This document shows, in pieces, positions 26,303 to 50,686 of a stretch of 64,000 nucleotides of DNA. The notes under the pieces were generated by a model. That model saw nothing but the letters and a program-made list of their open reading frames with translations. It was not told the DNA's origin and searched no databases. The translations under genes and the position numbers were made by a program. This DNA comes from Amoebophrya sp. A120. Lineage: Eukaryota; Protista; Dinoflagellata. The stretch is taken from positions 2,147,373-2,211,372 of the forward strand of contig CAJINV010000009.1 of NCBI GenBank assembly GCA_905178155.1. The letters are read 5' to 3'. How positions within the stretch are numbered: position 1 is the first letter of the stretch; each line of letters opens with the position of its first letter.

Positions 26303-28382
26303 GACGGTAACTTTCTCCGAAGGGGACGAAAGCCTGGTCAGCAGTACGCTGGGCAAGCTAGGAACAATTTCGACCCCAAAAAGCTCCGACCACGACCGGC
26401 AGTGCAAAAAGATACAGACATCATGGTCTTGCCGCGTTGGTACAACTGCTCATAATCGTGTGTAGTATAATATTTCGTTACAAAATATCACCGCTAAAAA
26501 AATAATGAACGGTCGTACATCTGCAGGTGCAAACAGAGGTACACCCTCAAGATCAAAAATGACAGAAGCTGGCCGCTGTGGGTAAATGACAATGAGGGAA
26601 GAAGATAAAAGATCGAGCCCGAGGGGCAGAAATGATCGAGCTTTATTACTCTGCGATGGAGGAAATTAATATGGGAACACGAACACCGCGATACAGATAC
26701 TACTTAATTTGTTTCAAATCCTACTCCTTGTTTGATGCGCGGGTGGGAGTGTAAAAATAATATCCATTGCGTTGCGAGAGCGAGAGGGAGAGCGTCACCG
26801 TCTTCAGCGTAACATACTATAAAAGTTGAAGTTCCTCATATCGAGCGTTGTGGTTTTAGTGCAGTAGAGTGATGATGTAGCCGCTCTTGGCGAAGGAGGG
26901 TCTCCTTAATGGGGCTCCACCTGGTTTTTGTTGTATGCATGATGATACATAGACAGAGCTAGAGGTGCTGGATTTTCAGATCTAGAAAAGGAATAAATTT
27001 GCTGAACATCTAAGCGGTCGTGTGACAAACGCTCGCGCATTCCAGCAACTCGGACCGACTAGCTTTGGCTTTGCGTAGCTGGAGGCGGTAAAGTACATTT
27101 TCATTTACATGATTAGTGCAGCTGTTGTTCGTATGCAGATGTTCATGCTGTCATTGCGAATCATGAGTCGTCGTCGTGGCTTTAAACTTTATTTATCGCG
27201 GTAACTACAATAGTCACGGGACGAGGTGGTGTCGCTTTCCTCGTCTTCCATGTTGATTGTTTGTAGTAAATGGCGCTAAATTGACTGCATGAACGAGAAC
27301 CGAGTGTCAAACTATCGCTCAAAAAACCGATGTTTTTCATCTAGTAATTTACTTCTGCTATTGAACGTTGCAACTTCACTCAAAACCGATTTTTTGGTTC
27401 CCTCACTCACCGACTCATACCTTCATCGTGTTACCCAGTGGGTCAGGACGAAAACAAACACAAAAAGCGGATGTCAACGTACGAAGTGTGAAAGTCTCCA
27501 TTCAACGTAAGTACTGAACAGACGCACCCACTAGTAGACGCGTGCAACTTCTTCGTTCGCGCGGTTTAGGTTTAGCTATAGCTACAAGGCAACTTTCATC
27601 AAATCACCAACCAGAATAGACTGACAGGGGGTTCTACGTCTTTTTATCTGTATTCGTAGCAAGATGATGACGTTGCAACGTTAGTCTGGATAAAGAACAT
27701 AACAACCCGCCTGTGTGACGATGCGAAAACAGACCACAGAAAGAAGGATCGAAATTCAAAATCTATGTTTGCAAAATTTCCCTTACAAACGAAGCCAACA
27801 ATCATTCAAAAAATATAAGCTGTATTCTCTAGAGGAGGCCACTTTTACTTTTTTGTCTTTGATTTGTAGCAAACGAAGAGAGTGATAAAAGAGTCTAAAG
27901 CGATCTCATCCGGTTCTGTATCACCGGAGAAGCGAAAGCAATAGGCTAAACGTAAACACGAACATACCAAAGAGCAAAAGCTAAAAAGACGATCAAAATG
28001 GTCTTTAAGTTTATTTTCTATGCTCCTCATTCTGCACAACGAAGCATCATACCGCAACAAATCAATGCAAGTGCAACCAACAATATTAGGCGTATCTTTG
28101 CTGGACTGAAAAAACGTCATCCGCCCCCGAAGCAACCAGAGCAGTGCGACGAATTGCAACTACATTCAAATACAAATTGAAATTGATCATTTCTGCAAAA
28201 AGAAAATAAAACAAAAGTTATGATGTAGTTCATGATCATGATATGAGGTTCAGGTTGCTCATGCTGGTATCGCGAGGAAGAGTTGGTAGCTATCGCTCCA
28301 TATGCAACTATAATGTTAGAACCGAAAGCGAAAAGCGAAACCCTAGCCCAAGCCAGTTCTTGACGACAGTATTCGACACATT

Positions 28383-31300
28383 TCAGTTCTTTCCCGTCGG
28401 CGTCGCAGGCTTCACAGTGTCTGGACTCGAGGGCTTCGGCTGCTCCGGCTCATCCACTAAATCCGCAAGAATCTTCCCGAGTGAGAGCCCAAAGGTGTAG
28501 ATGTCTTTGCTTTTCCAGGCGTCAAAGGAAGACTCCATGTTCTTCAAGACGTCATCTCCTTGGGCGTACAGGTGCGCACCTGCAGGAAAAACATAGAACA
28601 AGTGCAATAAGTTAGATTTTTTTTTTGTAATTTATTGCGCCCGACGTCTTCTGCCTCAGCAACAGCTGAAGTGGAACTCGATGACTCTAGAAAATAGCAA
28701 TGGAGCTTCTACATGTAGTCAAAACTAAAGCTCCAGCTCGGTGATGTCATGTGCTGGTGCTGCGGCTGCCCCGGACCCTCGAAACAAAATAGCAAACTTT
28801 AACTTAGATATACGTTATACAGGAACAGGAACGAATTTCATGCTTGATGAACGGCACGTTGTAAAACAAAACAAAAAATCAAAAGTACTCAGCTTTTGCG
28901 CGATTTCTTTCGGGTCACGTCGATCATCTGCCAGCCACTGCAAGCTTTTTTCGATCTGCGTGGTCTCCTGCTCTGATTTCTGTAGCAAATAGTACAAATG
29001 CGGCAAGTTTTGCAGCGACTTTCCCAGCTTCTCCAAGCCCTGGCCGAGCAGCGTTACGTTCCTCCAGCTGATCGCTCGCGCGATGACCACCACTGCGTTG
29101 ATATGGATGTGTCAGGTTTGAAATCGTCAAAGTTGAAATAGAAATAGTTTGTCATGCATAAAATGGATACCAGTTAGACCTACAGTTTGTAGTCGGCGCA
29201 TGGCAAATTTTCCCGGTCCTGGAAGCGAGTCTGTCACGCGGTTTAGGGCAAAGAGCTGCCTTCTGTCATGCTAGTTAGCAGTCCAACTTTTGACCCTTAC
29301 CAGGACTATAATCTGCCTCCCTTGGGTCCTCTGCAATAGAGTCACTCTTTGACTTTGTATCGCATTTTATGCATTGCAAATTATTTCAACTTTGACGATT
29401 TCAAACCTGACGCTTCCATAGTTGAACAAGTCCTGCGTTTCGGTGTTGGTGTCCACGAAAAACTCATCCGTGGTGTGGAACCCCATGCCCTCCAGTAGAC
29501 CCTTGATCAGTTGCGCGCGTTCCTGCGGGGAGGGCTTCGACGGAGAGAAAAGAAGGAGCTGCTGCAGATCGTGGTTGGGGTCTGACCGGTCGTGCTTTTT
29601 CTCCAGCACAAGCTGTAGTGGTTTTTTGGCGTATTACAAATTTTCACCGACAAGCACTACTCGCAGTGATAGTCAGAACGTTATTCAAAAAGTCGCCAAC
29701 GTGCGTCGGAGTGCAAAGTCTAGGTTTGATGTCAAGGACTACCATGAAGATGTCTTCATGCTAGCTGAACCTGAGAGTTGTCAAGAACATTTTTCGTTTT
29801 TCGTTATAATGCTCTACGCAAAAATGGTCATGATCCAAAAGAGGATAAAACAGGTCCAACGGGGGAACGTCGTACTACTTACCTTAACAATCGCCCCCAG
29901 CTCCTTGCCACATTCGAAGTAGTTTTTCGCCCGGAACGCTTGGAATGCCGATTTCCAATCCTCTGCGATCTCACCGAAATTGCGGAACAACCGCTCGGCC
30001 GTCCTAGTAGGGAACATCATTGGGTTCTTCAAAACGTCGCGAATGGTCTGCTCCTCCTGCTTTAACTCGCCAAGCGTGGCCGGCACTTTCTCGAACACCT
30101 GCCCCAGTAGGGCCAGCATGTCGCCCATTTGGTCTAAAAACCCCAAAGGATTTCCCTGCCCGAACGCTTGCTCAGCTTGCTGAAAATGTTGCTTCGCCTT
30201 CTTCAGCGTCTCCGCCTCCAGCTCGATCTCCTTCACGGTCTCTTCCGCGATGTCCAGGCCGGACCCCTCGACGAAACCCCGGAGCAGCTGTTGCAAGTCG
30301 GTTTTAGCAAAACCCAGCTCCTCCTTCACCTTCTCCTTGATTCGCTGCCCGATGGACTCCTTTTCGTCGTTTCTCTTCTGCTGCTCCGGAGCAGCTTGTT
30401 GTTCCTGCTGTACTAGGTCGCAATAGCCGTCCTTGCAACTACTCTTGCCCTCGTTCATCCTCATGAAGGTTTCTACGATGTCCTTGTCAGACACAGAGGA
30501 CTGGTAGGGCTTCTTCGCGACGGGTGCCTTCCGCTCCGGCATTTTTGTGGTGGAAGATGCATCGCTATAATTGACTTGTTCGGACGAGGTGGAGGTCGGG
30601 GTGCTGGTGGTCGCCTTGTAGTTAGAGATTCCGCCAGAACTTCTACCCGTTGGATCGGGATCGGTTTCATCGTCTGTGGCGGCACTCATGGCCGAGCTCG
30701 ACCCCGAGGAGTTGCTGCCGGGTGTGGAGGTACCGCCAGCAAGTGCTGACGAGCTAGCACTCGCCAGAGACGCCGATGTAGTCGCGCTTGTAGACGGCGT
30801 TGGTGGTCCTGGTGCGGTAGCGGCTTGAGTACTCGACGAGGATTGCTTGGCTACTCCCTTTGTTCGTGCCGTTGACGGGCTGAAGCTGTCTACGCCACCC
30901 AGAACGTAATCCTGAGCTCCAGTATCCATCGCAGCTGCTGAGGAGTAGGAAGTAACGGCGCCAAAGTGCGCGTCCAGCCACGGGCCGACATTGGTCGATT
31001 TGCCGCGGTAGCTGCTCAGAAAATCCTGTTCCTGTGCAGCATGATTCGACGAGCTGCTGGTGGTGCCGCCGGAAGAAGATGAAGATGAACCAGGCAGCTC
31101 GCTCTTCTCGTCTTTCTGTTTCTTGGCCTTGTATCGCGCGACCGCTTCCGGGTCTTCCTTGCTCTGCGGGTACGCCACTTTGCAGCCGTCCTCGCCCCTG
31201 TCTGAACCAACCAGGTCTTCTGCGGGCGAAGAGGCTCCGGTTTCCATTGGAGAAGCAGACGCAGCGTCTCTCTCCATAAAGTTCTTGGAGTCCGTCCCTG

Positions 31301-33537
31301 TGCGACGCAGGTACTGGCCAACCAGCCTGCGAAGCGATCTTCCCAAACGCGAGCGCACCGACGGTCTCTTCTTGTTCAGGGTGGAAAGATTACTTTGACT
31401 TTCTTCTTGATCGCCCGGCTCGTCGTCTTTCTTTTCCCCTGCTCTGCTCTGGTCGTCCCCAGCTTGTGCCATTCGTGTAGCTATCGCCCTAGATCCGTAG
31501 TGCAGCGCGCGACGGCGCTGGTTCCGCCTTGCCATTCGCTGTTCGGTCAGACCACCGAGAACGAATGCACAAACAGCAGGTGCGAGACGGACACTAATGT
31601 TGCTGGTAAAAGACTGCCCCTCTTGTTGCACGGGTCGACAAACCTCGCCGCCCAACTCCGGCGCGGGACTACGAAGTACTTTTGCATCTTCACCCGCACC
31701 AGTGAGCTGCGCCCCATTTTTCTGCCGATTTTGCTTCATGCGCAGAAGGAAGGCGGAGTTGTGGGGTCCCCCTGGCAGATCGTGGGCTGCGCAGCACTGA
31801 TCGTCTTCCGCCTCGTCAACCAATTGCTGCGTTGGCGCGGCTGATGTTGAAAAGGCTTCCGCTTTTGAACCAGCTTCGTCCCTGGAGCCTAAGAGTAGCT
31901 GTCCCTGCTGCGAGATCTGCGTCTTGACATTGTCGACCAACCGATTGCATTCTTCACGCACAGTTTTCCCCGCGTGATTGGCCAGTTCTGGAAGGGCGCT
32001 GCGGAGCTTCTGCATGTCGAATACGTCCCGGAGTAGGCCTTCTTTCCGGGGCACAACCATACCCGCGACGCACAGGCCACAGACAGCTGTAGCACCGATA
32101 ACCCGAGCTGCACTGCCTGAAATAGAGATGAGCAGCTAAGTCATTGAATAGTTAGTACTACGGATAAACTGGTTCTGGTGCCTTGTTCAGTATGCAAAAT
32201 CAACACGACAAGAAATAAGTGATAAAAAAATAAGAATTAGGATTGCTGGTAGTGTATCTGTAGATACCTTTGGTCCGTCGCGAACCAAAGCGCCCGGGCC
32301 GGCGTGTCGCCAGTGCGCCTGAAGGCTTTTTGCTCCCCCCAGAGGAAGCACTGCTACTCCGGCGCGCCAAAGGAGTGCTACCGCGACCTTGTTTGCCAGC
32401 GTGCTTCACGACGGCAGCGTACCGCAAACCACGTCCACCCATCGACGCCGGGAAAAGCTTCGACAGAGGCCAGCAGCGAAATTGCTGTTGGCCCCCACGA
32501 GCTCCGTATTTGCCAGCAGCGTGACTCGGAAAGCACTTGCTTCTCCGCCCGCCGTCCTGCAGGGGAGAGCAGTTGGAGTCTGTCGTGGTGGACGAAAAGT
32601 GCAAGCTAACCGGCCACCTGGGTGCGGCGTTGGCCGCCGCCCACTCCAGCTCTTCCCGGTCGAGCGCAGACAGGTTGCTGTTGCTGCTGCTGCCCGCTGT
32701 GGTGGATGATACTTCCAATGGGGTTCCTGTAATGGATGTCCCGTTGCGCGGCTCCTGCCCCACAGTAGCAACAGCGGGTGAAAACAACACTCCCCTTGCG
32801 GCTCTTCCATTTTTGGCACTCATTTCCATCTGGTCGAGGAGTAAAGAGGGGCGCTCGGAATGTTGCCGACTGAACACCAGAGTGGGGGCGCCAGTATAGT
32901 TGCCGCCTCCGCCGCCGCTGCGGGTGGAAAGCTTTTTCTTGAACGGAGAGGCACCGGATGCAGAGCCCGCTGAGCGCGAACTGCAGGACTTCTGCAAATC
33001 GTCGAAACTCTCCACGTCAGCATCCTCTTCTGTTTCTTCTACGCCCGGGGCCCCCGCACCAGCAGAAGCAATTCTGCCGCCCACGAGCGGCAGCTGCTGG
33101 AGCCGCTGAGGACAAGTTTTGCGCGTCCGTCGCGGACAAGACTTGACCCCACCAGAGCACGTTTTCAGAAACGAGCCCCGACCTTCACCTCGCGCGGCGG
33201 AAGTAGAGGCACTGGTCGCACCTGCTTTGTTGTGCTGCACTTTTTCCCGCAAGTCGTGAAGCAAGTTTCTCTGTTGCAGGTTGGCCGCCATGCTGGAAAG
33301 CGCCCCCGGGCCGGACGCGCTGCCGCCGGCTGCTGCAGCGCCACTGTGCATCATCTGTTCCAGATCATCCAAATCCGAGTCATCGAAGACACTACGGTCG
33401 CCGTGGGCCCGACACTGCCCAGCGCCACAGGAGCTGGTACGGGACAACGCCGTCTGTGGCGAGTGTGCGCCCTCCAGAGGCACAGGCGAGCTTGCCGCAA
33501 GAACGGCGGCGACAAGGTAAAGCCTCATGTTGGACAC
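28383..33537 (-). CDS. Putative secreted or membrane protein (~1366 aa) with two C-terminal helical repeats; exons 33537-32268, 32116-29883, 29612-29421, 29096-28889, 28579-28383
   Basis: Signal-peptide-like MRLYLVAAVLAASS. GT-AG introns 32117-32267, 29613-29882 and 28580-28888, plus the TIR element at 29102-29420, give one 4101-nt frame. Confidence 0.7.
29102..29420. mobile_element. 319-bp introner-like element (39-bp TIR, 5-bp TSD GTTGA); non-canonical intron
   Basis: TIR TATGGATGTGTCAGGTTTGAAATCGTCAAAGTTGAAATA with 2 mismatches. GTTGA at 29097-29101 and 29421-29425. Removal joins QDLFN|AVVVIAR. Confidence 0.9.
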
Positions 33538-33945
33538 AAATTCTTTCCTTGGTTCTGTGGAAGAACAGAAATATTAACAGTTGTTTGATGATGAACGACG
33601 TCAATACAGGCGAAACACGACCATTCTCCGATTGTGACTTTAACTTTATACTTTGCCTTGTTGAGAAGAACAAAATGAATTTAAATTTAAGTATTACGAA
33701 TCACAGGATCGATCCAAAAGTAGTCAAAGTAGTAGCAATCCACTTGGAAAAACAGGGCTCGATCAATTGCAAAAACAGTGTGTGTGTGATCCAATTCGAG
33801 TAGTTGTCTAGCTGTTTTTTCACGCCGCGTTTGTGGTTCTTCTTGTTTCATCACAGGAGCCAGCATGCGTCAGCTCGTTGCACACTTCAAGCAAAAGGAA
33901 ACCCTGCCTTTGCTTTTTCTTATTCACGGACGGAAGCCGTCCTGC

Positions 33946-36045
33946 TCAGCTGTGAATTTCTACTTTTCTTTCACAGTACCGCCAGTTGATCCGTGCAGGA
34001 TTAAACCTGGGGTTACAGAGCGGATGGTGAACGTAACCGGGCTCATGCATACCTGACCAAGACCGCGGCAAGTGATCCACATGTCTCATCGCGGCAAATT
34101 CCATGACGTACACCTCCCGAGGCAGCCGCTCCTTTACGTCGCTTTCCTCGAGATTGACGCCGTGGAGCGCGTTTGTATCAAAAATAAAACCCCCGAAAGC
34201 TTTGCCATCCATGTACTCAATCCTCGAGAAGTCCGGGTCCTGGTATCGTCCCCCGGTGTACAACTCAGTTGTAGTCCCGTTTTGAAAAAAATTATGTTCC
34301 TCTTCGGACTCTTGCGAAGTAGATTCTCTTCCCGTTATTTCCGCTTCATCTGGTTGTGACCTCTCCTCCTGGTCGCCCTGTTGATCATATTCTTCGTTGA
34401 AGAACGCAGTCCTAACAGCAGCGTCCTGCAGCTTGTTCGCCGCTCGAACGGGGCCGTGAAAGTAGTCGGTGGGTGAGAGCCAGTGCGTGTGGTGTGTGTT
34501 CCGCATAATCCGGGTCGGAAATCCTTTTCTGGGATCTGCCGGCACGTCGGTGAGGTACAGGTACACTTTCAGCCGCGTGCCACACCCGTCGTGATGCCAT
34601 AGTGCGTTGTCATACTGGTGCTTACGAAGGTCGCCCTTCAGCTTGAAATACCCTACGCCGCCGGTAAATGACACATCCGACGAACGCAAATACCCGTGAA
34701 CCAGCTTCCGTAGCAACGAGTGCCGGTCGGCCAGAAGTGGTAAAAGCCACGCCCGATCATTCGGCCTGACGTGTTTCGTGGCTTTTGCCAAAGAGTTAAT
34801 ATGGTTATCGTCTCCCTGCTCCTGCTGGTCAAGCGGCTTGACGAAAGACGGCACTCGCACGAATCCATCGCGACGGAAGTCTTCGATGAGCTGCCGCTCG
34901 CGGGCGGACAATATCCAGGAAAAAACACCCATCCCCATCCATTTTTTGCATGGCAAATAGTGGACTTTATGCATGTTTTGCATGACAAATTGGATGGGGA
35001 TGGGTGTTTTTTCCTGGATAGACAAAGGTGGCGGTGGACCAACATCAGCAGTTCCCACGGGGCTATCAACTGTAAAAATGTCTGGGTCTGGAAGAATGCG
35101 TGACTTGTCATGCAGCTTTTCCATGACCCATGAAGTCTGGAATGCAGGACCTAGCATGACAGATTCTGCGCGATCTCTCTCATGCCTATCCTGCATGAGA
35201 AACTCCCTCCCGACTTGGTCAAAACTGGACGACTTTTGGTAATCATGCAACACAGATTTTTGCATGCTTCAGATTTAGCATTACAAGTTGCATTCTTCCA
35301 GACCCAGACATTTTTACATTTGATAGGGGCACTCCTGTCCCCAATCCCAACGCCGAAACCAGGTGGGTAGATCCACGGTGAAAACAAACCGCGCCACCGC
35401 CGTTTGAAAATATCTTCGCTGCAAGCGCCGGAGATCTCGGTCCCCGCGTATTCGATTCGCAAGTGCCGTGAAATTCGTTTCCGAGCTTGCGGCGTCCGTA
35501 AATTGTTGATGTCCCGGTATGATCCGTCGGCGGACGACGTTTGTCAAATCGAAGCCAAAGCGGTGCTGCACCAACCCGTCGCGTGCCAGCGCGCGCAAAC
35601 TGACTTGCAGGGCGTCTGCGGCTTTTGTTTTCCTGCCCTCCCGGGTAAAGAGTTTATTTGCGTCTGCAGCTGCATCGCCCCGTTCTTCGAGTGGATTATA
35701 CCAAGCCAGCAGGGCGTCTTCCTTCTTCTCTTCGTCCAGCCAAAATGCATCAATGAGCTCCTGTATCTTTTCGTCCGGGAGAAAGTTTTCGCCTCTCCAC
35801 TGAGGCTTCTCCTTGCGCAAAAAATGATACATATCCGGGTCGTACAACGTTTTGGCCTGGAGGTTCGCCAGAGGCCGTGTTGGCTCCCCCTCGGGAGTAC
35901 TAGAAGATCTAGATCTAGACGAAAGAGCTGCACGACCATAACCGTAGTACAGAAAAATTCCGAAACCGAAGGAAATGGGGGCGCGGCGCCGCTGAAAAAT
36001 CTGGATCTTTTTCCTCATGATCTTAAGGTTAAGTGCCTCCTCCAT
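33946..36045 (-). CDS. Fe(II)/2-oxoglutarate dioxygenase, PhyH-like fold, with N-terminal hydrophobic segment; exons 36045-35326, 35058-35021, 34906-33946
   Basis: IEDFRRDGFVRVP, WHHDG (HxD), LKVYLYLTDV and FIFDTNALHG (distal His) match the PhyH-family pattern. 573 codons after removing two TIR elements. Confidence 0.75.
34912..35020. mobile_element. 109-bp introner-like element (30-bp perfect TIR, 5-bp TSD GACAA)
   Basis: TATCCAGGAAAAAACACCCATCCCCATCCA and its exact reverse complement form the ends. GACAA at 34907-34911 and 35021-35025. Confidence 0.9.
35064..35325. mobile_element. 262-bp introner-like element (36-bp TIR, 5-bp TSD GGGGC)
   Basis: TIR TATCAA(C/A)TGTAAAAATGTCTGGGTCTGGAAGAATGC. 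GGGGC at 35059-35063 and 35326-35330. Removal joins GQECP|VGTADV and removes the in-frame stop. Confidence 0.9.
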
Positions 36046-36805
36046 TATCTGTGGTTACCATTTCCGTGAGTGTCGCCACATCAAAATGCTCACTTACAAT
36101 GAAGCGCTGGTGCAAGGATCACGGTGATAGATCAGCATCAGATTCAGATCCATTAAGTAGCTTCAGCTTCTGCTTGCTGCCAAGAGAGATGAGGCCTTGT
36201 TCACAGTTGGCGCCGACACAGCTTGCTTGTAGTTCCGGCTGCGATAGGGCGCCAATTAAGAGAACCAAGGCATCTAGCTAGCATGGAGGATGCCTTCCAG
36301 AATTATGCTCCCGAGACTCGCCAACTGTAGCTCTGTCATGCAGTTCATGTACAAGTATACTTTTCGTTTTCTTTTGTGTCGCTGTTGTTTCGTCTTCGTT
36401 TTTTCGCAAAATTCTGACAGGAAGTTGTAACAATGTCACAGTCAGTCATCATCTTTCGCAACAGAAACGAGCAGCGTAGTGAAGTGCAGCAATAGCAGGA
36501 CGTGCAAAAAATTCAACATCGACTTCAACATAAACTGCGGCAAGAAGTACACCTGCGTCTTTATCGCTGAAAACCTAAAAAGGTGATCCGCGTGAAGGAC
36601 GATGGGAAACGCGGCACTGAATAGTAAAAGATAAAGTGATGAGGAATTCATATTCGATGAACTACTACTAGAAGAGGCAATAATCTTATCAAAGAAGCTG
36701 CAAGAACATCAGCTCAAATACCCTCATACATCAGTTGCATTTGCAACAGTTCAAGAGATTAAAAATCACCATGTTGAACAAACCGTCGAGGCTAAGCCTT
36801 GATTT

Positions 36806-39800
36806 CTATCGCGGCGCACGCGGCGGAGGTGGGGGCGGGCGCAGCGCATCGAGCAAGTACTGCAGATCTTCCCGGTCCACCGCGTTCGACACAGGCGCGG
36901 TTGCAGCTGCGGGCTGTTCGTTAGATACCCCCGCTCCCCCCTTGGTGCCTCGTGCTGACTTTGGCAACTTTGGCGGTGGTGGCGGCATGACCTTTCGAGA
37001 AGCACCAGCGCCAGCCCCTTGGAGTTCACTAGAAGCCGTCGGCTGTTGTGCAAACACACTTTTCGGCAGTGGTGGTGGAGGGTCCGCTCGAGAAAGGGTT
37101 GCACTCTGCGCGGGCAACGCCATTGCCGACATGCCAGCTGCTTTGGAGAAAAGCGAAGCCGCAGGGCTCGGTAGAGGCGAAGAGCTAGCTGCTCGAGCTA
37201 ACACCACAGGAGGAGCAGGAGGGGGAGGCGGGGGCCGGTGTGATCGCTCTTCTTGCTCTTGAGCTTGTCGCACAGCAAGCGGAACAGTCAGCGCCAGCCG
37301 CGCGAGTTCGTCCTTCTTTTCGGCATCCATTTGCAAGAACATTGGGTCGACGTTCTGGCTTCCGCTATTTTGTTCGGTGTCCCCATTCTCCTGGTGTGCC
37401 TGCGCGGCGCGTGGTACCGTGCTACCTTCAACACTTTCTCGACGTTCTTGGGGTGGATCGTGGTTCTCATCTACTTCTACTGCAAAAGTCTGAGCAGCAG
37501 GCTCGTCATCTTCGAACTCCATCTTCATGCCACTAATCATATCACCCGGACCCGCGACTCGATCCACATTATTTCCATGCTCTTCAATGCCGGACGAGGG
37601 CCCCGCAACTACAGCATCGTCTGCGTCTGACGTGCTGTCGGGAAAGAGGTCAGAAATTTCTTGGAGCGACTCTGGGTGCGCGCGGTCCTTGCAAAGGTCC
37701 TCCACCAAGAGCGGAACGACAACACCGTGTGACGTTTTGCTGCTAAGGTTCAAAGTCCTAAGAAACGAGAAGCAAAGGAATTTCTGCAGCAACACAAATC
37801 GCATTTTCTGCCGGGCAGAATCGATGACAGGTGAGCAATGAACCTGCATAAGAGGGTCGGATTGCACATCCACAAGGGCTGCTCCGCTCCTAATACTCTT
37901 TTTCAACGAAGATTTTGTGCCCGTTACAACTTCTTGTTCGAATGCTGTGGCCAAGTCGAGAGACGAGAAAAGCTTTCGACAGTATATCGGTCGGTGCTCC
38001 AAGACGAAGTCCAGCAAAGGCGGTCCGTTGACGTATTCCACACGGTAGCGAAAGGAAAAGGGCGGAAAGGGAATGTTACTTGGATCGTATTCCGAGGGGT
38101 GCATTAGGTCAATCAAATCCCCTTCCTGCAAGGGAACCAAATGCGCCGACGGGGTCGCTTTTCCGATGGTAGTTTCCGCACCTGTTTTTTTCTGCTTCAC
38201 GAAATTTATCCACATACTCTGGCTCTTCGGGTCGAGTGCCACGTACGCCGAATCATTGCCAAACAGACACTGCTGCTGCGCGGCAGTGAGCGACGCCAGT
38301 GCCTTTTTGGTGCCGGATGCAGACGTCGACGTTGTGGTCACGTCCCAGATCCCCGAGCCCGTCGCCGTGCGGCTGAGCGCACGCTGCTGATCCCGCGCCC
38401 GCGCGGCCGCCAGCTTTGCCTTCTGAATCTGCTCCCGCTCCTTCGGCGGGAGCCAAGAAATCTCCTCATCTGTCATATTCTGCATCGCCAAAGACAGTTG
38501 ACCCGCACTCGTCGTCGACGTGGACTTCGCTTTATTCAACACCTCTCCGTTCGTAAGCGCGTGCTTCGCAATTTTCACCTTATACGCCTGATGTCGGTGG
38601 AGCAGCTGCGCCTGGCGTTCCACGAAATTCAACTTCTTAGCTGAGAGCGTAAATCCGCTTCGGGACACGTTCACGCAATCACCACGAAAGTGGCTTTTCT
38701 TCTGCGGGTCTGTTCTTCCCTCATCGCGAGCCCTTTTGTTGCTCTGCGAGTTACTGGCACGAGACACATTCACATTGTGGAGTTCCGAATTCACCATTTG
38801 CTCCTGAGCTGCACCACTTCCTAAGGCTGTCGGTGTCGCTGAGGTTGCGGGCAGCGCGCGGACCTTGATTTCTCGCACCACCTTCGCACGGTCCCACTGC
38901 TTCTCGAGTTGATCGGCGGTTGTGTCGATCAATTCAGCGTCGGTCTCAGGTGAGAAATTCAGGGCCTTCGCGGCGAATCTCCGAAAGAACTTCCGCCGCA
39001 GCTGTGCCGCCATGTTCAATTTGGTTGTAGTTGCTTGTGCGTGCTGTTGTACCTGCGGCAAAAAGTCGATGCGTCGCAGTCGCATCAGGACAGGATTCTG
39101 CTGGTACACCGTTGCGGCCTGAAGGACCTCGTCTGCCTTAACCAGGCTCAGGCGGAATTGGAATAGCGACTCCTCATAGTGTTCCTTGGAGCGCTGGTTC
39201 CCTGCGTACAAATTGTACGAGACCGGCTTGATGCTCGAATGATTTCTACTGCCCGTTGGTGTGCTACCGCCGATCGGCGCCTTCGGAACCGATAGGAGCT
39301 TGTCGCGACCCCGCGTCGCGATCACCGCGTGAGTCAGATCGCCCTGGTTTTTGAATCTAAGAAGCACGTACCGGCCCGCCAGCGCCACGTGGCACTTAGT
39401 CAACGGAAACCGCACAAACCCCTCGATCTGCGAAGTGGCGCGCAAGCGGGAACTGCTCTTGTTGTCATGGAAAACTTCAGGACCCCCTCCGCGGCCGATA
39501 ATTCCACCAGTGGGCTCCTGCAGAAAAACACCTGTACTGCGATGGTCAGAAAAGAATTCAGAGGCCAGGAACCGCAAACTCCGCGGGAGTTCGAGTAGCA
39601 GCGAGTCGCAACCACCCTGCTGAATCTGCGCTGCCACTCGACACAGTTCCGTTTCCTCTTTTCTCCGAACCAGCTCGACGTCGTGAGGAGACGCCTTCCC
39701 GACGTCTAGCAAAGAAGCTGCTCCTCTTTTCGTATCCAGGGCATTGTATTCACCTGATGCTGGCTGCTCCATGCTAATGGCAGCGGCGCTCGCGCTCTCC

Positions 39801-41830: not shown

Positions 41831-42692
41831 GCTATTTGTCTTTCTCGGCGTGTGAAGTACTTTAGTACCTTCACCGACCTTGCTTCTTCAGAATGTTTTC
41901 TTGGAAAGTAGAGAAACTAGTCGCACCAAGACGCGAAACACCAACGTGAATGTGAACGCCAGCTATTAAGGCTACAGAAGATGGATAAAACTTGATCTTT
42001 GTCTTCAAAGAGGTAAACCTCCACTGTATTCTAAATATTTCTGATGCGGGCGGCTGCGGCAGACAAGGCCATGCCCAGCACTTTCGATAAGAAATTTTTT
42101 TGTCGCTGAGAGTTGTACGAAACAGTACACAATCATGAACAACAACGAGAATGAAGCAGCAGGAAGAAAAAATAGACACAACTTTCTCCTTTCTCTTTCA
42201 ATCTAATCATAAATTGCTGGTTGATGGGTACAAAGTGACTCCGGAAAGATAATCTATGCGTATGCCACGAAAGAAGCGCGCCAGGAATTTTGACAATGAA
42301 CGGTAGACAGATCGTGATCGACGTCTTGATCAAGTTCTGTATCTGCGTACTAGATGTAGATCATCGAACACTATACTATATACAGAAAGTCTAAGCGAGC
42401 TGAGCGCGGGCCCGTCGCGGATGCGTTGTATGCGAGAAGAAGCAAAGAGCATGCTGCGTAGAGTGCCTTTGAGCCTCCTTGTGGCGCAAGAAGGAAAAGT
42501 ACTTCTACAACATGATTGAACATTTTTAAAAAATACTTAATCTCTTTTTTTGGGTGAAAGAGATCTCCCTTCTTCGACCCTCTTTACGCTAGGAGCTCCC
42601 TGGACTAGAACCTCCAATGCAGTAAACTGAAGCGGTGGCGGTCTTGTTCGCCACCACTGCATCTACGTAAACCTATTATACAACATAGTTCG

Positions 42693-44909
42693 CTACTCCA
42701 CAGCTCGATCGGAAGTATTCGCCTTACTCGGCTTTGCGCAGAATATGTGGTTCCAGTGGTCACCCACGAACAATAAGATCTCCAACGCGATCAGGTAGAT
42801 GATGAGGCACTCGAGTTGCGAGCTGTGCCCGTGCCGTACGTGTTCGTTGTGGGTCCGCGACAGCCCCACCATGTAGTCGAGCTCGTGTCGCAGCTTGTTG
42901 ATGCGGCTCGGTAGGTCGAAGGTTTGTTGACACACGTCCTCGTAGATCTTCTCCGCCTCCCCGCTCTCCCAGAGAAGATCCACGACGTCCGCGTTTTCCC
43001 GCAACGGGTGCAGCTTGGCGTACAGCAGCCGCTGGCAACTCACTTCCAGGTTGAAGATCCGTTTTTGCAGCGAAGAGATTCGCTTGACGAAAATCACGTA
43101 GTCCAGCGTTTTCTGCAGCTCGGTGCGGAACTTGGTCAGTTCCGAATCCACCAGCTCCAAAAACTCCTTCAGCAGCTGCTCCTCCACGTTTACGCGCACG
43201 GCAAAATCCATCGCCAAACTGGTCGCAAGGCACAGGGTTGGGAGGTTGCTCGCATCCCTCTGTAGCCGGATGTGCGAGTCATGCAGATGGAAGCTGCTCT
43301 TCATATTGGAGGCGCTGTAGGAATTCCCGTGCAGACGCAGGGTAGAGGAAGAAAAAGCGCCTGGCGCCGCGGTGCCAAAAGCAGCACTGCCAGCCTTGAT
43401 ATTACCGAGGTGATCTTTACTTTGTTCAAGAACATCTCGCTTCTTCTGATTCATATCTGTGTGTTTTTCACCCGAAGTACAGCCGGTCTTTGAGGTTGTA
43501 CTTGTAGCAAGAGATGATCCCCCTGCACCTGGACCTGGCACCGTGGAAAATGACAGTGACTCGCTCCATTCGATCTGTTGCTCGTAGTCCAGCTTCACGT
43601 TGCTCACAATGGTTTGATTCGCCTTCGCGAGCAGCGAGTTCTCGCTTTTCTTCGTAGGCAGCCAGGACAGGAGTTTCCGAACGCCCTCGCTGTGCTTACG
43701 CTCGTGTGTTTTCTTGTTGCCAGTGGCCGAGGAAATAGCGCTCGTGCTAGAGTTGGTCGCGTTCGTCCGCAGTGCTGACCAAGAAGCCGTGTAGTTTCTC
43801 GTCGATGAAGATCCCGGTGTCATGATGTGACCAGGACCTTCCCCAAAACCAGCGCTCACTGTTTGTTCAAACGCATTGCTATGTCCCGTAGTCTCGCAAA
43901 AGAGGTGATCCCGACCTACTTCGATCAGATGCTTCACGGCGTCGAAATTGTTCGTGGCCTGCTCGTCTTGTACTTGCGCACCTCCTCCGGTCGTGGTTTG
44001 GGCTATTGTTGTTGGTGGCGCCCAGATAACTACTCCCCCAGTACGTAGAAAGTAGGCCCAGTACGTTCCATTTCCTCCGGCAGAATGTAGCGACAACCAT
44101 AGGTATTGGGAACTACTGCGTTTCCGCAACTGTCCGAGAAAGCTGTTTTGCACCGTGAAGACCGGGTCATTGCCAGCAGCGAAGTGGTCCAGTATCCCGT
44201 TCAGATTCAATGCGTTGCTGTCTGCACCGGACGTCTTCCCTCCGTGGTAGATGAATGCCTTCGCGAGACCAACTGCCGGGGCCGCACCTGCGCTCTCCTG
44301 TTCGTCGAAAAGACCTCCTGCGGTAGGAAAAGTAAACGCCGGAGGAGACGTAGTTGAGCTGCCCGTGCCCTCAGCACCACATGATGATGTCGTACCCGTA
44401 CGGTGTTCGCCACACAACGCTGCACCTTGGAAATAAACGCCAGGAGGTGGAGCACCGGGCTCGGCAGGATAAGATCCAGATGCCGGCGCACTGGTCGTGG
44501 TGACGTGGCGATTAACTTTAAGCCTGGGGGTAGAGGACGAGGAAGAGGAAGACGTAGCAGTACTGTTGGCACTTGAAATTGTACGACAAGTATCGGCAGT
44601 ATTCGCCATGCATCGTGGGAAGCAGGCTCCTGGGCCGCGTCCAGGCAACGCAGTATGTGAAGACCGAATAGCCGAATGAAATTCTCGTGCGGGTGAAATC
44701 TTAGATGCTCCTAGTGTTGGACCCCCACTGCAAAAGTTTATTTGCGTCGTGTGGTGATAGGATGCCTTGACGACGCGCTCGCTACTTCTCAGCATGAGAT
44801 CAGCCCCGTGACAACCGGGATTACATTGCCGCCGGCCCCCGAATATGCGCGGACGCGGAGCGACTCGCACCGTCGGCATGGACATGGTAGTCTTCATCAT
44901 GCGCATCAT
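42693..44909 (-). CDS. RMND1/Rmd1/Sif2 (DUF155) family protein
   Basis: YFLRTGGVVIW, then DLLWES...IYEDV...FDLPSRINKL...HGHSSQLECLIIYLIALEILL, matching the DUF155 core and terminal hydrophobic helix. The Arg-rich N-terminus could be a mitochondrial presequence. Confidence 0.8.
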   Translation of the reverse strand: MMRMMKTTMSMPTVRVAPRPRIFGGRRQCNPGCHGADLMLRSSERVVKASYHHTTQINFCSGGPTLGASKISPAREFHSAIRSSHTALPGRGPGACFPRCMANTADTCRTISSANSTATSSSSSSSTPRLKVNRHVTTTSAPASGSYPAEPGAPPPGVYFQGAALCGEHRTGTTSSCGAEGTGSSTTSPPAFTFPTAGGLFDEQESAGAAPAVGLAKAFIYHGGKTSGADSNALNLNGILDHFAAGNDPVFTVQNSFLGQLRKRSSSQYLWLSLHSAGGNGTYWAYFLRTGGVVIWAPPTTIAQTTTGGGAQVQDEQATNNFDAVKHLIEVGRDHLFCETTGHSNAFEQTVSAGFGEGPGHIMTPGSSSTRNYTASWSALRTNATNSSTSAISSATGNKKTHERKHSEGVRKLLSWLPTKKSENSLLAKANQTIVSNVKLDYEQQIEWSESLSFSTVPGPGAGGSSLATSTTSKTGCTSGEKHTDMNQKKRDVLEQSKDHLGNIKAGSAAFGTAAPGAFSSSTLRLHGNSYSASNMKSSFHLHDSHIRLQRDASNLPTLCLATSLAMDFAVRVNVEEQLLKEFLELVDSELTKFRTELQKTLDYVIFVKRISSLQKRIFNLEVSCQRLLYAKLHPLRENADVVDLLWESGEAEKIYEDVCQQTFDLPSRINKLRHELDYMVGLSRTHNEHVRHGHSSQLECLIIYLIALEILLFVGDHWNHIFCAKPSKANTSDRAVE

Positions 44910-46361
44910 CTATTAATCCATGATCGACATCTTCATTACGAAGTATACAGCTTGCCACTTCCACCTGCGCGCGAATATCAAGGCGGGCCAATATCGATAT
45001 GCTCCTCCTTCGTTAATACCACAAACTTATAGTGTGTAGTGCTCACTACGTGATCTTTCGTCAGCAATGTGAAGGCTTTCAACTACGTCTACGTCCGCTG
45101 TGCGATGAAGCACAGCCGGACGGGTATACATGCTTTGAGTTGTACAGTCTCCGACTAACACTCATTCATCGGAGGCGACATTCTTTTTTCTGCAACAACT
45201 ACGACCAAATCAACAAGGGAAACTGATTTGCACAGTCTAAAACCAGAATCAGAAACCAGAAGGACAAGTCGTCACACGATCCTCGCAGTAGAGCAAACCA
45301 GGCTCCAGTCTGCTGGTGCTGCATCAACGGCGAGACCAAAAGGTTTTTACTAGATTGAGATTCGCTGAAGACCTGGAGAACGTGAACGACAGAGCAGACA
45401 AACACGAACTTGTTGAATAGATGGTAGTACGTCTACGTTTAGTCTGTCGCCATAGTTCAACACCATCCTCCGCCGCATGATGAACTGCCAAGGCACGATG
45501 TAGGTATTCGTATTGAATATGAAGTTCAAATTCATTACAAACCGTAACCGCCACGACGATCACGACGCCCCGTTCGTCTTCGACATCACTTCTCGTATTT
45601 AGAATCCTTCCGCAACATGAAAATGATCTATCACCGAATATCAAAACGCTGCTGGTACCCGAGGATGATCCACACACTATTGAGCAATCGCACAAATGGA
45701 ACTGACGATGCGTCGTTGCAACAGCTGAGATCTCCTCTTTGATCTTGAACCTCAAGGAGCACAGCCTCACTCCGTGAACAAAGTCTTGATCATCAGCACA
45801 AAAATGTCGTGTTTTCATGCCGTTGCATTTTCTTTTTGTTTATGTTTATTATATCCCTTCGCTGTTTTCCCAAAAGAAACTATAGTATCAAATTCCCGAA
45901 CAAAAAAGTGAGAGCTGTGACTTTGCGAACCGTTTACATGAACATGTGTAATAGAGTAAACCTCTGCCTCATCGGTCTTCCTGGACTAAAAATCCTTGTA
46001 AATATTTATGCAATAATCAGATAATTTTTTTTCAAAACGAAATAAGTACAAAAATTGTTGTATGTTGGACGAAAGTGAAAGAGGGCAAAATTAGCGGTAG
46101 AAAAAAATAATTACTATATAGCTGCAGCTGCTTCAAGGACGAAAAAACTGAAGAAGAGGGTGATCATGTGAGATGTTTAAATTTTTGAATTTCACTGACG
46201 CAACCCTTTGCTGAATGGGAATGTCCCCCGCAAGAAGTCGGAGGCCGTAGTTGTACGGCGGGTACGTCGAAGCCGACACTGACGCTCTCCTCTTTCTTCT
46301 TATCTTCATCGTGCGTCTATTGTTTCGTGATGATGATCGCTCGTGATCTGATCATTTAGAT

Positions 46362-47636
46362 TTACATGATCATCTGATTCGGATTCCACGTATTCTGGTT
46401 TGAATCGACCGCATTGTGGCACTTGTTCCAAGTTTCCTCCGGACGCGCGGTTAGGTCGGTCACGAAAGCGTTACACTGGCACCCGTTCCAAAGCGCTCCC
46501 CCAATCGCGCATTCCGGCGTGTTGACGTTGTTCGGATCATGGCAATTGTTCACTTTCTCGTGGCAGGTCTGCCAGTCCCACGCCCCGCTGCCTTGTGGTA
46601 CCGGTGCCGGTGCAGCAATCGGCGCCACTGCCGGTGCGGCCGCCTGCGGAACCGGCGCAGCCACGGGCGAAGGAGCTGCTGGTGCAGCCAGCGGAGCCGG
46701 TTGGTAGTTCGTCGGTGCACCCGGAGGGGCAGCGGCCGTAATCCCAACGGGTTGCACCGTGTCCCAATCGTGCTCGTGCAGGTCGACACTAGTGTGGCAC
46801 TGGTTCCAGGCCTCCTCCGCCGGCCCCACCGCTTCCGGAGAAGGCACGAAGGTGGTGCACTTACACCCATTCCAGAGTGGTCCCCTGAGCATGCATGGCG
46901 CAGTGTTGACTCTGCTGCTTTCATGACACTTGTTCACTGGGTCGTGGCATTGGGCCCAAGGCAAGGTGCTTTGTGGTGCAGCTGCCGGGGCCGGTTGTAG
47001 TGCCGGTGCAGGGAACGGAACAGGTGCCACTGGGGCGCGGGCCACAGCCGGTCCAGCCGGTGCCGGTGGGCCAATTGGTGCGGCTGGAGCGATCGGTGTT
47101 GTTGTTGTAGCTGTGCTTGGCTGCCGCAGTGGCGACGACCCCTCGCCATCCTCTTCGTACTCCCCCTCGCCATCCTCTTCGTACTCCCCCCCGCCGTCCT
47201 CCTCGTCGTCCTCCTCGTCCTCGTCGTCGTCGTCCTCCTCGTCGTCGTCGCGCTTTTTCCCGACCTTGTTCTTCTCCTTGTCCATGTCCAGCTGCACTTG
47301 TAATACAGTGCTTCCACCAGCACGATCATTTTGATCTTCCGGCACATCTTCAACCGAGGACTGCTCATTCTTTACGACGACCGCACGATCTTGCTGCAGC
47401 AGCTCCTGTTGAAGATGCTGTCCCCCACCGGGGCGATTGTTCCCGGCACGCGACGCAGGTTCTCCTGAAGAGAGATCAATACGCAGCTTCGCGACCCGAA
47501 CGGCACCGCCACGGTACAGGTGCTGCTTCTCGTGCGCTGCAATTCGGGAAGCTTGCAGCAGAAGCAGCTGCGTCTCCGAAGAAACCGTGGCGAGCGCAAA
47601 TACGGCGCAGCTCTTCATCTTCGTGATGTGCGGCAT
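46362..47636 (-). CDS. Putative secreted protein with an acidic tract, Pro/Ala linkers and two copies of a 6-Cys/Trp domain
   Basis: Signal-like MKSCAVFALATVSS, a D/E tract with GEYEEDG twice, and two modules W-x2-CH-x2-VN-x-CH...VNT-x2-C...LWNGC-x-C-x2-FV...EE-x-WN-x-CH-x2-VD. Confidence 0.8.
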   Translation of the reverse strand: MPHITKMKSCAVFALATVSSETQLLLLQASRIAAHEKQHLYRGGAVRVAKLRIDLSSGEPASRAGNNRPGGGQHLQQELLQQDRAVVVKNEQSSVEDVPEDQNDRAGGSTVLQVQLDMDKEKNKVGKKRDDDEEDDDDEDEEDDEEDGGGEYEEDGEGEYEEDGEGSSPLRQPSTATTTTPIAPAAPIGPPAPAGPAVARAPVAPVPFPAPALQPAPAAAPQSTLPWAQCHDPVNKCHESSRVNTAPCMLRGPLWNGCKCTTFVPSPEAVGPAEEAWNQCHTSVDLHEHDWDTVQPVGITAAAPPGAPTNYQPAPLAAPAAPSPVAAPVPQAAAPAVAPIAAPAPVPQGSGAWDWQTCHEKVNNCHDPNNVNTPECAIGGALWNGCQCNAFVTDLTARPEETWNKCHNAVDSNQNTWNPNQMIM

Positions 47637-48948
47637 GCTTTTTGTCAGGACCAGGAAGGTGTGTGAGAGGATAGAAATGTTTTTTTTTCTAAGTGAACAA
47701 AGAAAGTGCAGCTCGTCCTGTTGATTGGATTATTTCAAACACTGGTGGCACACTACTTCAAGGAAAATGGCTTCCCATCGCGCACGACGAAGTTTGACCT
47801 GCTTGACCGCGTTCAGAATACCGCTTATTTAGTACGAAGTAGACGACGACTACGACGACGACCCTTGTAAAAATCGACGTTCTTTCATTTTTCCGGTTCA
47901 AGTTCTCGTTCTGAAATGACGGTCTCGTATTTTATTTTCGACCAAGAAGGCAAAACGACACGACACCAAACTACGGCGGCGAGGTACTTTGATATTACGC
48001 CTCGAAAGTACTCTACCTAGGTGCGTAACTTCTGTCTTTGTAGTTTACGAAGGGCGACGAAGTACAGTTTCCGATCCGACGACACGAGTACCAGAGGTTC
48101 TACTATTTCAAGGTGCTCTGGCCGCGACTAAAGAGGAAATCAAACTGCAGATCATTGAGGACGAAGATCAACCACGTAGCAACAACTGGTTCTTGATGTT
48201 TGAGAGTCCTACAAAAGATGAGAACGAATGCAATGACTCTGCACAGGGGCGGCCACGAAGACGGAGATCGATGCGAAATGTCTCCCACACCCGCGGTTTT
48301 TTTTTCGTGGTCTTATCTACTTTTAGTGTAGCACAATGGTTATCGTTTATACAACTGTGTGTGTCATTCGAGATTCAGCCAATATCTGCTTCATCATATT
48401 GTACATTTTCATACAAGAGATAACCATGATGACGCGACTACAAGAGCTGCGAAGAGAAGCAAATAACATACCAAAAATTTTCTACAGGTGAAAGAACAAA
48501 TGTTGCCGTGGTGACTATTGTGAGTATTGTTGACCTTTTTTCCCGTGAACAAAAAAGCGATAATAGGTATATCAAAACTGATCAGATCCTGGACGTCCTA
48601 GGAGAAAGGATGTTGACCTAGGACAAGGATTGAAGATGGTGTAATTGATGGCTAAACTTCAACTTGTTCATTCTTACGCGCACAAGAGTTGATGTTGAAA
48701 CGGTAACATTAGAAAGAGAGCTGATGTTTGTAATCGATAAAAACGCAACAAAAAGCGGTTTCTTCCGCGCTAATAACTTCCCAGCTTTTTGCGACGATGA
48801 ACAGAATGTTGATTGATGTACCACTATTGGGTGAGGATCGAAGCTGAGTGATGTATAAAAAACTGCACCGGGACGAAGACATCAAACAGCTCTAAACATA
48901 AAAGCAAAAACAACTGCCCAAAAACCGAGCCTAAGCCTGCTTTTGATT

Positions 48949-50686
48949 TTACTCCTTCGGCGGAATTCTCTTGGTCTTGTGGCGACGGAGCCGTAAAGAT
49001 TCGTCGTGCGGTTCCCCCAAAACCGACCGAATGTGGTGCAGCTTGACGTCGCCTCCCTGGCTGTAGGGCAGCGCGAGGTCGTTGGCTGTTGTGAAAGAAA
49101 GTAGAACAGATTAAATTCATGCTCGATACAAAAAAGATGCTTATTTTGCCTTAGCTTTACTTCTACAGGTAATCTGGCTGACAAAGCGAAGATAGAGGAA
49201 ACTCATGACAAAATTACTGAGATGACCAGGTCCAGGTGCACATCACACACGACTTATTATACCGACAGCGTGGCCGTAGTGCCAGTTTTTCTTCCCGAGC
49301 ATTTCGGTGACGCAGCCCTCGGACCGGTTGTGCTGGATGCGGCTGCCCAGGTTTTCGAGGTAGCCGTCGTGCTCGCGCAGCGTTGCCTCGTACTTCATGT
49401 TGTTGCGGGACTTGTGACCGTGCTTCCTGTCCTGCACCAGGTGCTCCCACGTGTTGGTACTTGACCCCTCGCAGCCGGGCCAGTACCGAAAGTTCAGTAT
49501 GCAATGCAAAAGCATCGCACTAGTATAAATTGCATTACAAATTTTCCCAAGAACAAAAATGCAACTTGTCATGCTATTTCAGGTAGAAAGTTGGATTTGT
49601 CATGCACCGCTGCAATTACTACGAGTACGATACTTTTGCAATGCATATTCAGGTCCATGTCGCGGATCGAGGCGATCGGCAGCGCCGACTGGCTGCGGTC
49701 GTATAGCCGTTCCTGCGTTATGGGAGTGTCAGAATCGAAATCGACAAAGTCGGAAAATTTGTAATGCATAACACGTAGGGCACGCATGAGCTGTGTTGGG
49801 GACCAGGCAAATAAGACTGATTGAAAGCCTGCAGTATGCAATGTGCTGCCACAGTAGCACTACAGGCGGACTCTTCTTTGCCTAAACAGCATGACAAACT
49901 GGATTTAGGTACTGCCAAAATTTGTCATGCACCACTTGAAAACTGGGCTCCAACTGGTATCGATTTTATGCATCGCAAATTTTTCGATTTTGTCGATTTC
50001 GATCCTGACATTCCCATATGCGTCTTCGGGTTGGTAAACTTCTCTTCGTACTGCCCGTCCGCGAAGTTCGTTTTCGCCAGGTCGAAACTCTGGTGTGACT
50101 TCGAAAAGTACCTGGTGGTGTTGTGAGGTATTCGATAGTACAGAAGGAAAAATACGTTGCTGGACAATCTATAAGTAACTGTAGTACTAGTGTGCGAAGC
50201 TGCATACTAAAAACACATAACATTCAGAAATAGGCATATCAGGGATGTTTCTCGGGACATGATGGCCGCTCGCGCACTCATGTGCGGCGTTAAAAAAAAA
50301 TCATGAGTACGTGGTAGATACGTACCTCTTCCATTTCAAATCTGGCTTTCCTGCCTTGCCGCCCCGGAGGTTCAGTTGCCAATTTATTTCAGAATACCCA
50401 CCCCCGGAAACCCGCATCGTGGCAGCTGAAGATCATATTGTTGATAGTTGTAAGAGATGATAATCATGAAAATCAATGAATCTATCAGAACTCGCAACTG
50501 AACTTCCGCCTCAGAAAGTAAGTAAGTAGGTTTTTTCCGAGATGAAACAAAAAGCACTTGCAATTTAAGTTTAAGAGTCAAAACCTGCATATCGTGACGC
50601 AACTACAACATGTACATCGATAAGATACCATTCTGCAGCATGGGTCTGGTGTCTGCAAAGTTTCCGTATTTCTCATTGGCAAACAT
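48949..50686 (-). CDS. Hypothetical ~227-aa protein; exons 50686-50629, 50425-50326, 50111-50019, 49713-49648, 49492-49263, 49085-48949
   Basis: Three GT-AG introns (50426-50628, 50112-50325, 49086-49262) plus two TIR elements give a continuous 684-nt frame (MFANEKYGNFADTRPM...YSEINWQLNLRGG...KTKRIPPKE*). The 5' end is uncertain. Confidence 0.7.
49498..49647. mobile_element. 150-bp introner-like element (~37-bp imperfect TIR, 5-bp TSD TTCAG)
   Basis: TATGCAATGCAAAAGCATCGCACTAGTA versus reverse-complemented right end TATGCATTGCAAAAGTATCGTACTCGTA. TTCAG at 49493-49497 and 49648-49652. Removing 155 nt joins DMDLN|FRYWPG. Confidence 0.88.
49719..50018. mobile_element. 300-bp introner-like element (~53-bp TIR, 5-bp TSD TGCGT), homologous to 29102-29420
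   Basis: TIR TATGGGA(G/A)TGTCAG(A/G)ATCGAAATCGACAAA...ATGCATAA. TGCGT at 49714-49718 and 50019-50023. Removing 305 nt joins NPKT|QERLYD. Confidence 0.9.

Follow-up and report, generated by a model that had tools for sequence, protein, structure and literature searches.

Two copies of one introner family in opposite orientations are missing from the RNA of their host genes in Amoebophrya sp. A120

How are insertions removed from RNA when copies of one family lie in both orientations relative to their host genes? The genome paper raised the question of removal for the non-canonical introns of the dinoflagellate parasite Amoebophrya (Farhat et al. 2021, BMC Biol 19:1, PMC7789003). A 64,000-nucleotide (nt) stretch of Amoebophrya sp. 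A120 DNA (contig CAJINV010000009.1; this whole stretch is the window below) poses it for two introner elements, A and B, which sit in two minus-strand genes, gene A and gene B (Table 1). The two are copies of one family of the miniature inverted-repeat transposable element (MITE) type, they lie in opposite orientations, and RNA lacks each of them together with one copy of its target-site duplication. We consider it probable that their removal is guided by the hairpin formed by the ends of the element and not by strand-specific signals.

Elements A and B both open with TATGG and close with CCATA. The inverted arms of A (29102-29140 and 29382-29420) are 39 nt long and 95% complementary and are extended inward by a further pair (29136-29165 and 29363-29392), and those of B (49719-49771 and 49966-50018) span 53 nt at 89% complementarity. 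The end motif TATGGNNNNGTCAGNNTNGAAATCG has four copies in the window, namely both ends of A and both ends of B; 0.07 copies are expected, and four were reached in 0 of 100 shuffles. At 300-319 nt, the elements are without coding capacity. Alignment of A on the plus strand with B on the minus strand gave 229 identical columns among 287. Since palindromic ends align either way, orientation was judged on the interiors, with 55 nt cut from each end. The trimmed interiors had a local score of 62 for A plus against B minus and of 16 for A plus against B plus, and 300 shuffles had a mean of 16.3, a standard deviation of 2.1 and a maximum of 23. Because the trimmed interiors align only in the first arrangement, the opposite orientation of A and B is real and does not come from their palindromic ends. 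The original prediction, which was made from the letters of the window, had placed both elements in one family in opposite orientations, and this pairwise alignment in both orientations, with an interior score well above the shuffle maximum, bears it out. Its coordinates and nearly all the strings it quoted are correct; the exception is in copy B, where it gave GTTTAGGCAAAGAG and the sequence has GTTTAGGCAAAGAAGAG. In the transcript sense, the predicted RNA fold of A has an energy of -127.9 kcal/mol (z -7.35) and that of B one of -131.5 kcal/mol (z -8.99), with 0 of 100 shuffles as good in either case. Both predicted stems start at the first base of the element, and the unpaired duplication copies lie side by side at the foot.

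The RNA evidence for removal came from contigs assembled for a single sample (X1-X4, labelled 'RNA?'). For gene A, a 5026-nt contig (X1) carries a 1378-codon frame, and in it the pieces 28887-29096 and 29421-29612 are adjacent with 0 mismatches. Three of the gaps in this contig are GT-AG introns after a register shift, and the fourth corresponds precisely to element A with a single repeat copy. Because the three GT-AG introns are also skipped, the contig represents spliced RNA. A deposited 1363-aa Amoebophrya sp. A120 'unnamed protein product' (P0001) matches the large exon of gene A with 100% identity; it has the same junction at element A (TQDLFN/AVVVIA) and was the only match to gene A, one among 7971 candidates. 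For gene B, an RNA contig (X3) that ends at 49718 runs on with 16 nt that are unique in the window and lie at 50024. A 1611-nt RNA contig has the length of the exon-model mRNA, whose protein is 320 aa long; the 473 nt of it left unplaced equal the 214, 100, 88 and 71 nt of exons 50629-50842, 50326-50425, 50024-50111 and 49648-49718. This match accounts for the removal of both B (305 nt) and a second element in the same gene, C (155 nt), for which an RNA contig piece ending at 49492 joins the length accounting. Raw RNA runs with the same species label (X8 and X9) contributed two reads each in the window. The spliced contigs carry minus-strand frames of 1378 codons for gene A and 320 codons for gene B, which confirms the predicted strand of both host genes; all open reading frames (ORFs) of at least 400 aa in the window lie on the minus strand as well, save a plus-strand ORF at 13842-15164 (440 aa) within a 1600-aa minus-strand ORF at 11627-16429. 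It had also been predicted that both frames are restored by the same rule. The rule, removal of the element plus one 5-nt repeat, is indeed shared, but the restored frame is not evidence in itself, as it follows automatically once an insertion and its target-site duplication are removed.

Such joined contigs could also arise if reverse transcriptase switched template across the hairpin between the direct repeats while the real mRNAs keep the elements. Template-switch pseudo-introns share with our elements non-canonical junctions with direct repeats and strong structure, and an RNA that folds at about -130 kcal/mol into a stem with 5-nt direct repeats at its foot is a known substrate (Parada et al. 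2014, PMC4176328). This explanation predicts exactly an orientation-blind, repeat-defined junction, and a term look-up in the main text of Farhat et al. (2021) found no mention of template switching. However, retention of the elements would truncate both proteins, to 207 instead of 320 codons in gene B and to 1261 instead of 1378 in gene A. Four full-length relatives, including one from Amoebophrya sp. A25, align with the gene B protein over its entire length (a fifth, P0003, is partial), and the most conserved half of the protein, the C-terminal one, lies downstream of B and C, in a frame that is reached only with both removed. Identity to relatives is 109/143 and 96/144 downstream and 132/166 and 111/169 upstream, and the alignment runs without a gap across the C junction (DMDLN/FRYWPG). 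This argument for removal in vivo is independent of reverse transcription. For gene A, it is the joined form that the unbranched contig, at a depth of 31, represents. Moreover, the 29,850 such introns reported in A120 genes (PMC7789003) cannot all be knock-outs. Because the conserved frame of gene B needs removal, and because of this published count, an artefact of reverse transcription is very unlikely indeed.

A further explanation is that the elements are excised from DNA in a transcribing stage, in a ciliate-like manner, and that the RNA copies a repaired gene. Inverted repeats that end in TA and leave one repeat copy behind resemble the internal eliminated sequences of ciliates, and a transposase-like excision would naturally match the target-site duplication in its precision. 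Against this, the DNA contigs retain element A: two of them (X5) at single-copy depth (43.4 and 41.5) enter it by 27 and 26 nt, one from each flank, and the joined form 29096/29421 was not among the DNA joints listed for this sample. Family elements next to foreign flanks are also found in RNA contigs, for instance a 255-nt loose end at 49719 in X1, so the elements are transcribed. We regard excision at the DNA level as highly improbable.

If removal ignores orientation, copies should be found both along and against the coding strand of their hosts. Copies outside the window were obtained by scanning a metagenome collection with the end motif, which yielded at least 132 stretches, all on JACKZZ01 contigs; these loci match the window only inside elements. 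At least 89 unique copies were extracted, and among the matches listed, to which all counts of copies here and below refer, the flanking repeat matched at 5/5 positions in 75, at 4/5 in 9 and at three or fewer in 5. The host strand was called by a codon-usage score that was trained on the window and applied to the reconstructed empty site. In a leave-one-out test, the caller was right in 392/392 cases at the margin used and left 28/420 uncalled. Fifty of the 75 perfect-repeat copies were callable: the family orientation agreed with the coding strand in 32 and opposed it in 18 (p = 0.065), and the ratio was 26:16 and 21:13 at stricter margins. The intron lengths of the 50 fell in all three frame classes (23, 14 and 13), and the target sites of the copies had no consensus composition. 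As both orientations are common in coding sequence, both are tolerated there, which is a prediction of orientation-blind removal and not of a one-strand signal. The original prediction had envisaged a tabulation of all genomic family members; among the matches listed, it shows both orientations to be common. A and B combine terminal inverted repeats with a duplication of fixed length, are small, lack an ORF and occur in many copies whose flanks are unrelated, and these traits together make them members of a MITE-type introner family of Amoebophrya sp. A120. From about 44, the depth of the DNA contigs climbs to 10,433-34,861 within A and to 9,836-47,609 within the region of C and B, although depth is not a copy number. 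A Pfam scan of the window's 19 ORFs and exons revealed no transposase, no search aimed at transposases having been made.

The window itself was scanned strictly for elements whose ends read TA...TA, with complementarity at 12 or more of the 14 end bases and the same 5 nt on both flanks. Six elements were found (F, A, E, D, C and B), and 0 in each of five shuffles. All six start with TAT and end with ATA, have an end complementarity of at least 12/14 and are flanked by a perfect 5-nt direct repeat. A run of A is reached after 5-7 nt in C, D, E and F and later in A and B (TATGG....GTCAGG.T.GAAA). Elements D and E are gone from one RNA contig by the rule of element plus one repeat, with 34906 joined to 35326 via 38 letters. 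For element F, a predicted removal of 166 nt fits, by arithmetic, the frame offset of the minus-strand ORFs 9406-11034 and 8787-9398. None of the six elements has GT-AG, GC-AG or AT-AC borders in any of the six equivalent registers, and the sole constant end across them is the element's own UA. These non-canonical borders go together with removal supported by RNA, which is seen as contigs without A, B, D and E and, for C, as a contig edge with matching lengths. Beyond the window, 41 of the 50 host-called copies are likewise without a canonical register, and the remaining 9 could use GT-AG, GC-AG or AT-AC.

Does the interior of the elements carry a signal that is read on one strand? The best-conserved internal blocks of the A/B family are a 9-mer, GCAT[TG][GA]CAA or its complement; the six elements, 1.3 kb in all, hold 15 copies of it, and the other 62.7 kb of the window one. 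Of 49 elements that belong to other families with different ends and lie beside the fetched copies, 47 carry the 9-mer as well. Relative to host transcription, 35 copies are in sense and 37 in antisense, and elements with a single orientation of the motif divide 13 to 14. With no strand preference, the 9-mer is unlikely to be a strand-specific RNA signal and was rejected as such. We infer that it may have a role at the DNA level, for example as a subterminal transposase-binding repeat. A term look-up in the text of Farhat et al. 2021 (PMC7789003), figures not covered, found no GCATGACAA-like internal motif. Since within this one young family both orientations are removed alike, and since the motif favours neither strand, the candidates narrow to strand-symmetric signals, namely the terminal stem and the flanking repeat.

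These results bear on the possibility that a conventional, merely relaxed spliceosome uses cryptic sites and that the hairpin is incidental. The host genes do contain canonical introns, three of the GT-AG type in gene A and four in gene B, and the 9 of 50 copies mentioned above could use canonical ends within the ambiguity of the repeat. According to the genome paper, nearly all spliceosomal proteins as well as U2, U4 and U6 are found in A120, whereas U1 was not detected (Farhat et al. 2021, PMC7789003). In the six window elements, however, no register has a constant end dinucleotide besides the element's own UA, and 41 of the 50 copies offer no canonical register at all. The presence of both orientations in coding sequence, with the only shared internal motif divided 35 to 37, also speaks against such sites. 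A relaxed spliceosome acting on cryptic sites is thus possible but doubtful as the explanation.

Table 1. Coordinates of the elements, their duplications, the host genes and the internal motif in the window
Feature	Position	Strand	Length	Remarks
Introner element A	29102-29420	+	319 nt	family reference orientation on +, antisense to host gene
Target-site duplication of A	29097-29101 and 29421-29425		5 nt	GTTGA on +; read directly, strict scan
Stretch missing from RNA at A	29097-29420	-	324 nt	element A plus one duplication copy; register ambiguous over 6 positions
Introner element B	49719-50018	-	300 nt	family reference orientation on -, sense to host gene
Target-site duplication of B	49714-49718 and 50019-50023		5 nt	TGCGT on +
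Stretch missing from RNA at B	49719-50023	-	305 nt	element B plus one duplication copy
Host gene A	27577-33656	-		exons 32267-33656, 29883-32115, 29421-29612, 28887-29096, 27577-28577; three GT-AG introns and the element-A intron
Host gene B	48394-51169	-		exons 50954-51169, 50629-50842, 50326-50425, 50024-50111, 49648-49718, 49263-49492, 48394-49085; four GT-AG introns and introner introns B and C
Introner element C	49498-49647		150 nt	TATGCATTGCAAAA ends; duplication CTGAA in transcript sense; 71 nt downstream of B, same gene
Introner element D	35064-35325		262 nt	duplication GCCCC in transcript sense
Introner element E	34912-35020		109 nt	duplication TTGTC in transcript sense
Introner element F	9366-9526		161 nt	duplication TCGGC in transcript sense
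9-mer sites in elements	9416, 29149, 29198, 29371, 34948, 34980, 35105, 35278, 49532, 49566, 49597, 49636, 49759, 49889, 49922
9-mer site outside elements	41101

Recognition of the terminal hairpin in RNA was examined in 52 copies, A and B included, and several points weigh against it. Among arm pairs in the host-sense stems, G.U pairs number 81 and A.C mismatches 109, and no RNA-level selection on the sense stem, in the form of G.U over A.C, was detected in these copies. In 37 of the 52, folding is weaker for the sense RNA than for the antisense RNA (median difference +5 kcal/mol, Wilcoxon p 0.0012). Selection for a sense-RNA hairpin would predict the reverse, although the asymmetry is lost once only private changes are counted, and the comparison favours neither side. 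For the offset to be fixed at 5 nt, some ruler would be required, and we know of no machinery that supplies one. The RNA evidence consists of assembled contigs of one sample and, for B, of a 16-nt loose end together with length accounting, and direct repeats beside a stable hairpin are the classic template-switch substrate of reverse transcriptase (PMC4176328).

The difference in stability could point to yet another process, in which the polymerase bypasses a hairpin extruded in the template strand and re-pairs at the second repeat, with no cutting of RNA. Polymerase bypass would explain why the junction equals a duplication of any sequence and why orientation is irrelevant; precedents exist in vitro, and the template-strand (antisense) stem is the more stable one in the same 37 of 52 copies. 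This asymmetry is not robust, however. Transitions in the arms would give A.C in 176 cases and G.U in 131 (interior, 286 vs 289), and they are mostly shared by descent; when only private changes are counted, the arms have 19 vs 13 and the interior 26 vs 28, and the asymmetry is gone. RNA contigs that contain elements also speak against bypass, and to our knowledge there is no in vivo precedent at this scale. We judge polymerase bypass to be highly improbable, and it joins the artefact of reverse transcription and DNA-level excision among the explanations that are unlikely.

Collectively, these results favour removal that is guided by the hairpin. The prediction that no strand-specific signals are needed is supported in part, in that both orientations are removed alike and no canonical register is available; its second part, recognition of the terminal hairpin, we infer from the anatomy of the elements and from orientation-blindness, and the pair counts in the stems (G.U 81 vs A.C 109) weigh on neither side. 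In the mechanism that we propose, cut-and-paste transposition would bring in an element through a staggered cut of 5 nt. Within the pre-mRNA, a terminal stem of 40-60 bp would bring the two copies of the duplication side by side, and the juxtaposed copies would define the sites of cutting and joining, whichever strand is transcribed. The rule of removal can still be polar along the RNA. If removal takes place at the RNA level, we lean slightly towards a spliceosome-independent endonuclease plus ligase as the catalyst, a route suspected for the nonconventional introns of euglenids, with a relaxed spliceosome a nearly equal candidate. Introns of the archaeal or tRNA type, with a bulge-helix-bulge of two 3-nt bulges and a 4-bp helix at the junctions, were also considered as a possible class of catalyst. 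More speculatively, and with more doubt than confidence, tens of thousands of insertions may be removed by an orientation-blind, sequence-blind and non-spliceosomal process whose sites are set only by the terminal hairpin and flanking microhomology, through either a structure-guided endonuclease-ligase or polymerase bypass. If true, this would be a second general system for the removal of mRNA introns in a eukaryote nucleus, convergent with the nonconventional introns of euglenids.

The class to which these elements belong is known. Farhat et al. 2021 (PMC7789003) described introner elements in A120 with an inverted repeat of TAT, seven variable nt and AAA, with direct repeats of 3-5 nt over the exon/intron borders, with non-canonical borders and with predicted hairpins. 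They counted 29,850 repeated introns in 1,954 families, reported no transposase, proposed that the splicing of these introns differs from the usual machinery and already put forward a hairpin model. The elements of the window occur in the same organism and share with that description TAT inverted repeats that reach an A run, a 5-nt direct repeat within the 3-5-nt range, membership of a repeated family with a high copy number, non-canonical borders, a hairpin that joins these borders, the lack of a reported transposase and the mixture with canonical introns. Nothing essential differs from the description as far as its text was covered; the arms here measure 39-53 nt, and the motifs scored there 8-20 nt. 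As the elements match the published description, the class was already known, and our observation is correct and re-discovers an intron class already in the literature. What is added here, the orientation tally and the note on the internal motif, is a small, incremental extension. The searchable text of Farhat et al. 2021 (PMC7789003), figures not covered, holds no tabulation of element orientation against transcription. In the main-text passages found, 'orientation' refers to genes; the supplement uses the word three times, each time for gene orientation in the legend of Fig. S7, and 'strand', 'antisense' and 'reverse complement' are absent from the supplement text. Among the papers that a literature search retrieved, none dealt with how Amoebophrya elements are oriented. 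Gozashti 2025 listed terminal inverted repeat (TIR) and long terminal repeat (LTR)-like introner families in A120, and the introner clustering of Gozashti 2022 explicitly allows insertions in opposite orientations.

Two other systems resemble the A120 elements. The introners of Polarella glacialis and Aureococcus anophagefferens (Roy et al., bioRxiv 10.1101/2020.10.14.339549) are likewise derived from DNA transposons, flanked by target-site duplications and able to act as introns in either orientation. In contrast to the A120 elements, they are spliceosomal and have GY...AG sites carried on the element or recruited from the duplication; such sites were found in no register of the six window elements or of 41 of the 50 listed copies. 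The nonconventional introns of euglenids (PMC11282704) also have non-canonical borders, no polypyrimidine tract, inverted ends whose pairing juxtaposes the two termini of the intron, and duplication-like repeats at their junctions, and a MITE origin and a possibly spliceosome-independent mechanism are suspected for them. They differ in belonging to an unrelated lineage, in their short end pairing (CAG/CTG) and in being excised as circles.

Regarding the host genes, a Pfam scan of their exons (one exon in the case of gene B) found no family in either. The search with the gene B protein returned relatives from A25 and others and no A120 protein among the matches, and gene B may be missing or differently modelled in the deposited A120 annotation. 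An element that splits a Pfam domain was sought in a diacylglycerol kinase gene on the minus strand (21883-26449), which is divided over two long ORFs with the catalytic domain at 24257-26449 and the accessory domain at 21883-23550; the introns between these ORFs, read by eye, have GT...AG ends and look canonical. The adjacent elements D and E enclose a micro-exon of 38 nt (35021-35058). A 21-nt tandem array at 5876-6511, with a unit like TTTTGCATTGCACAAAATCGA, is similar to the element motif, and large inverted repeats lie at 7051-7151/7417-7511 and 5754-5808/8736-8790. The array and the inverted repeats of 5754-8790 may be a larger related transposon or foldback element. Outside the window, a stretch of locus L036 (1272-1807) aligns with 49492-50018, that is with C, the 71-nt exon and B, over 550 nt at 74.5% identity; judged by this alignment, the match suggests either a paralogous gene copy with both insertions or a composite element.

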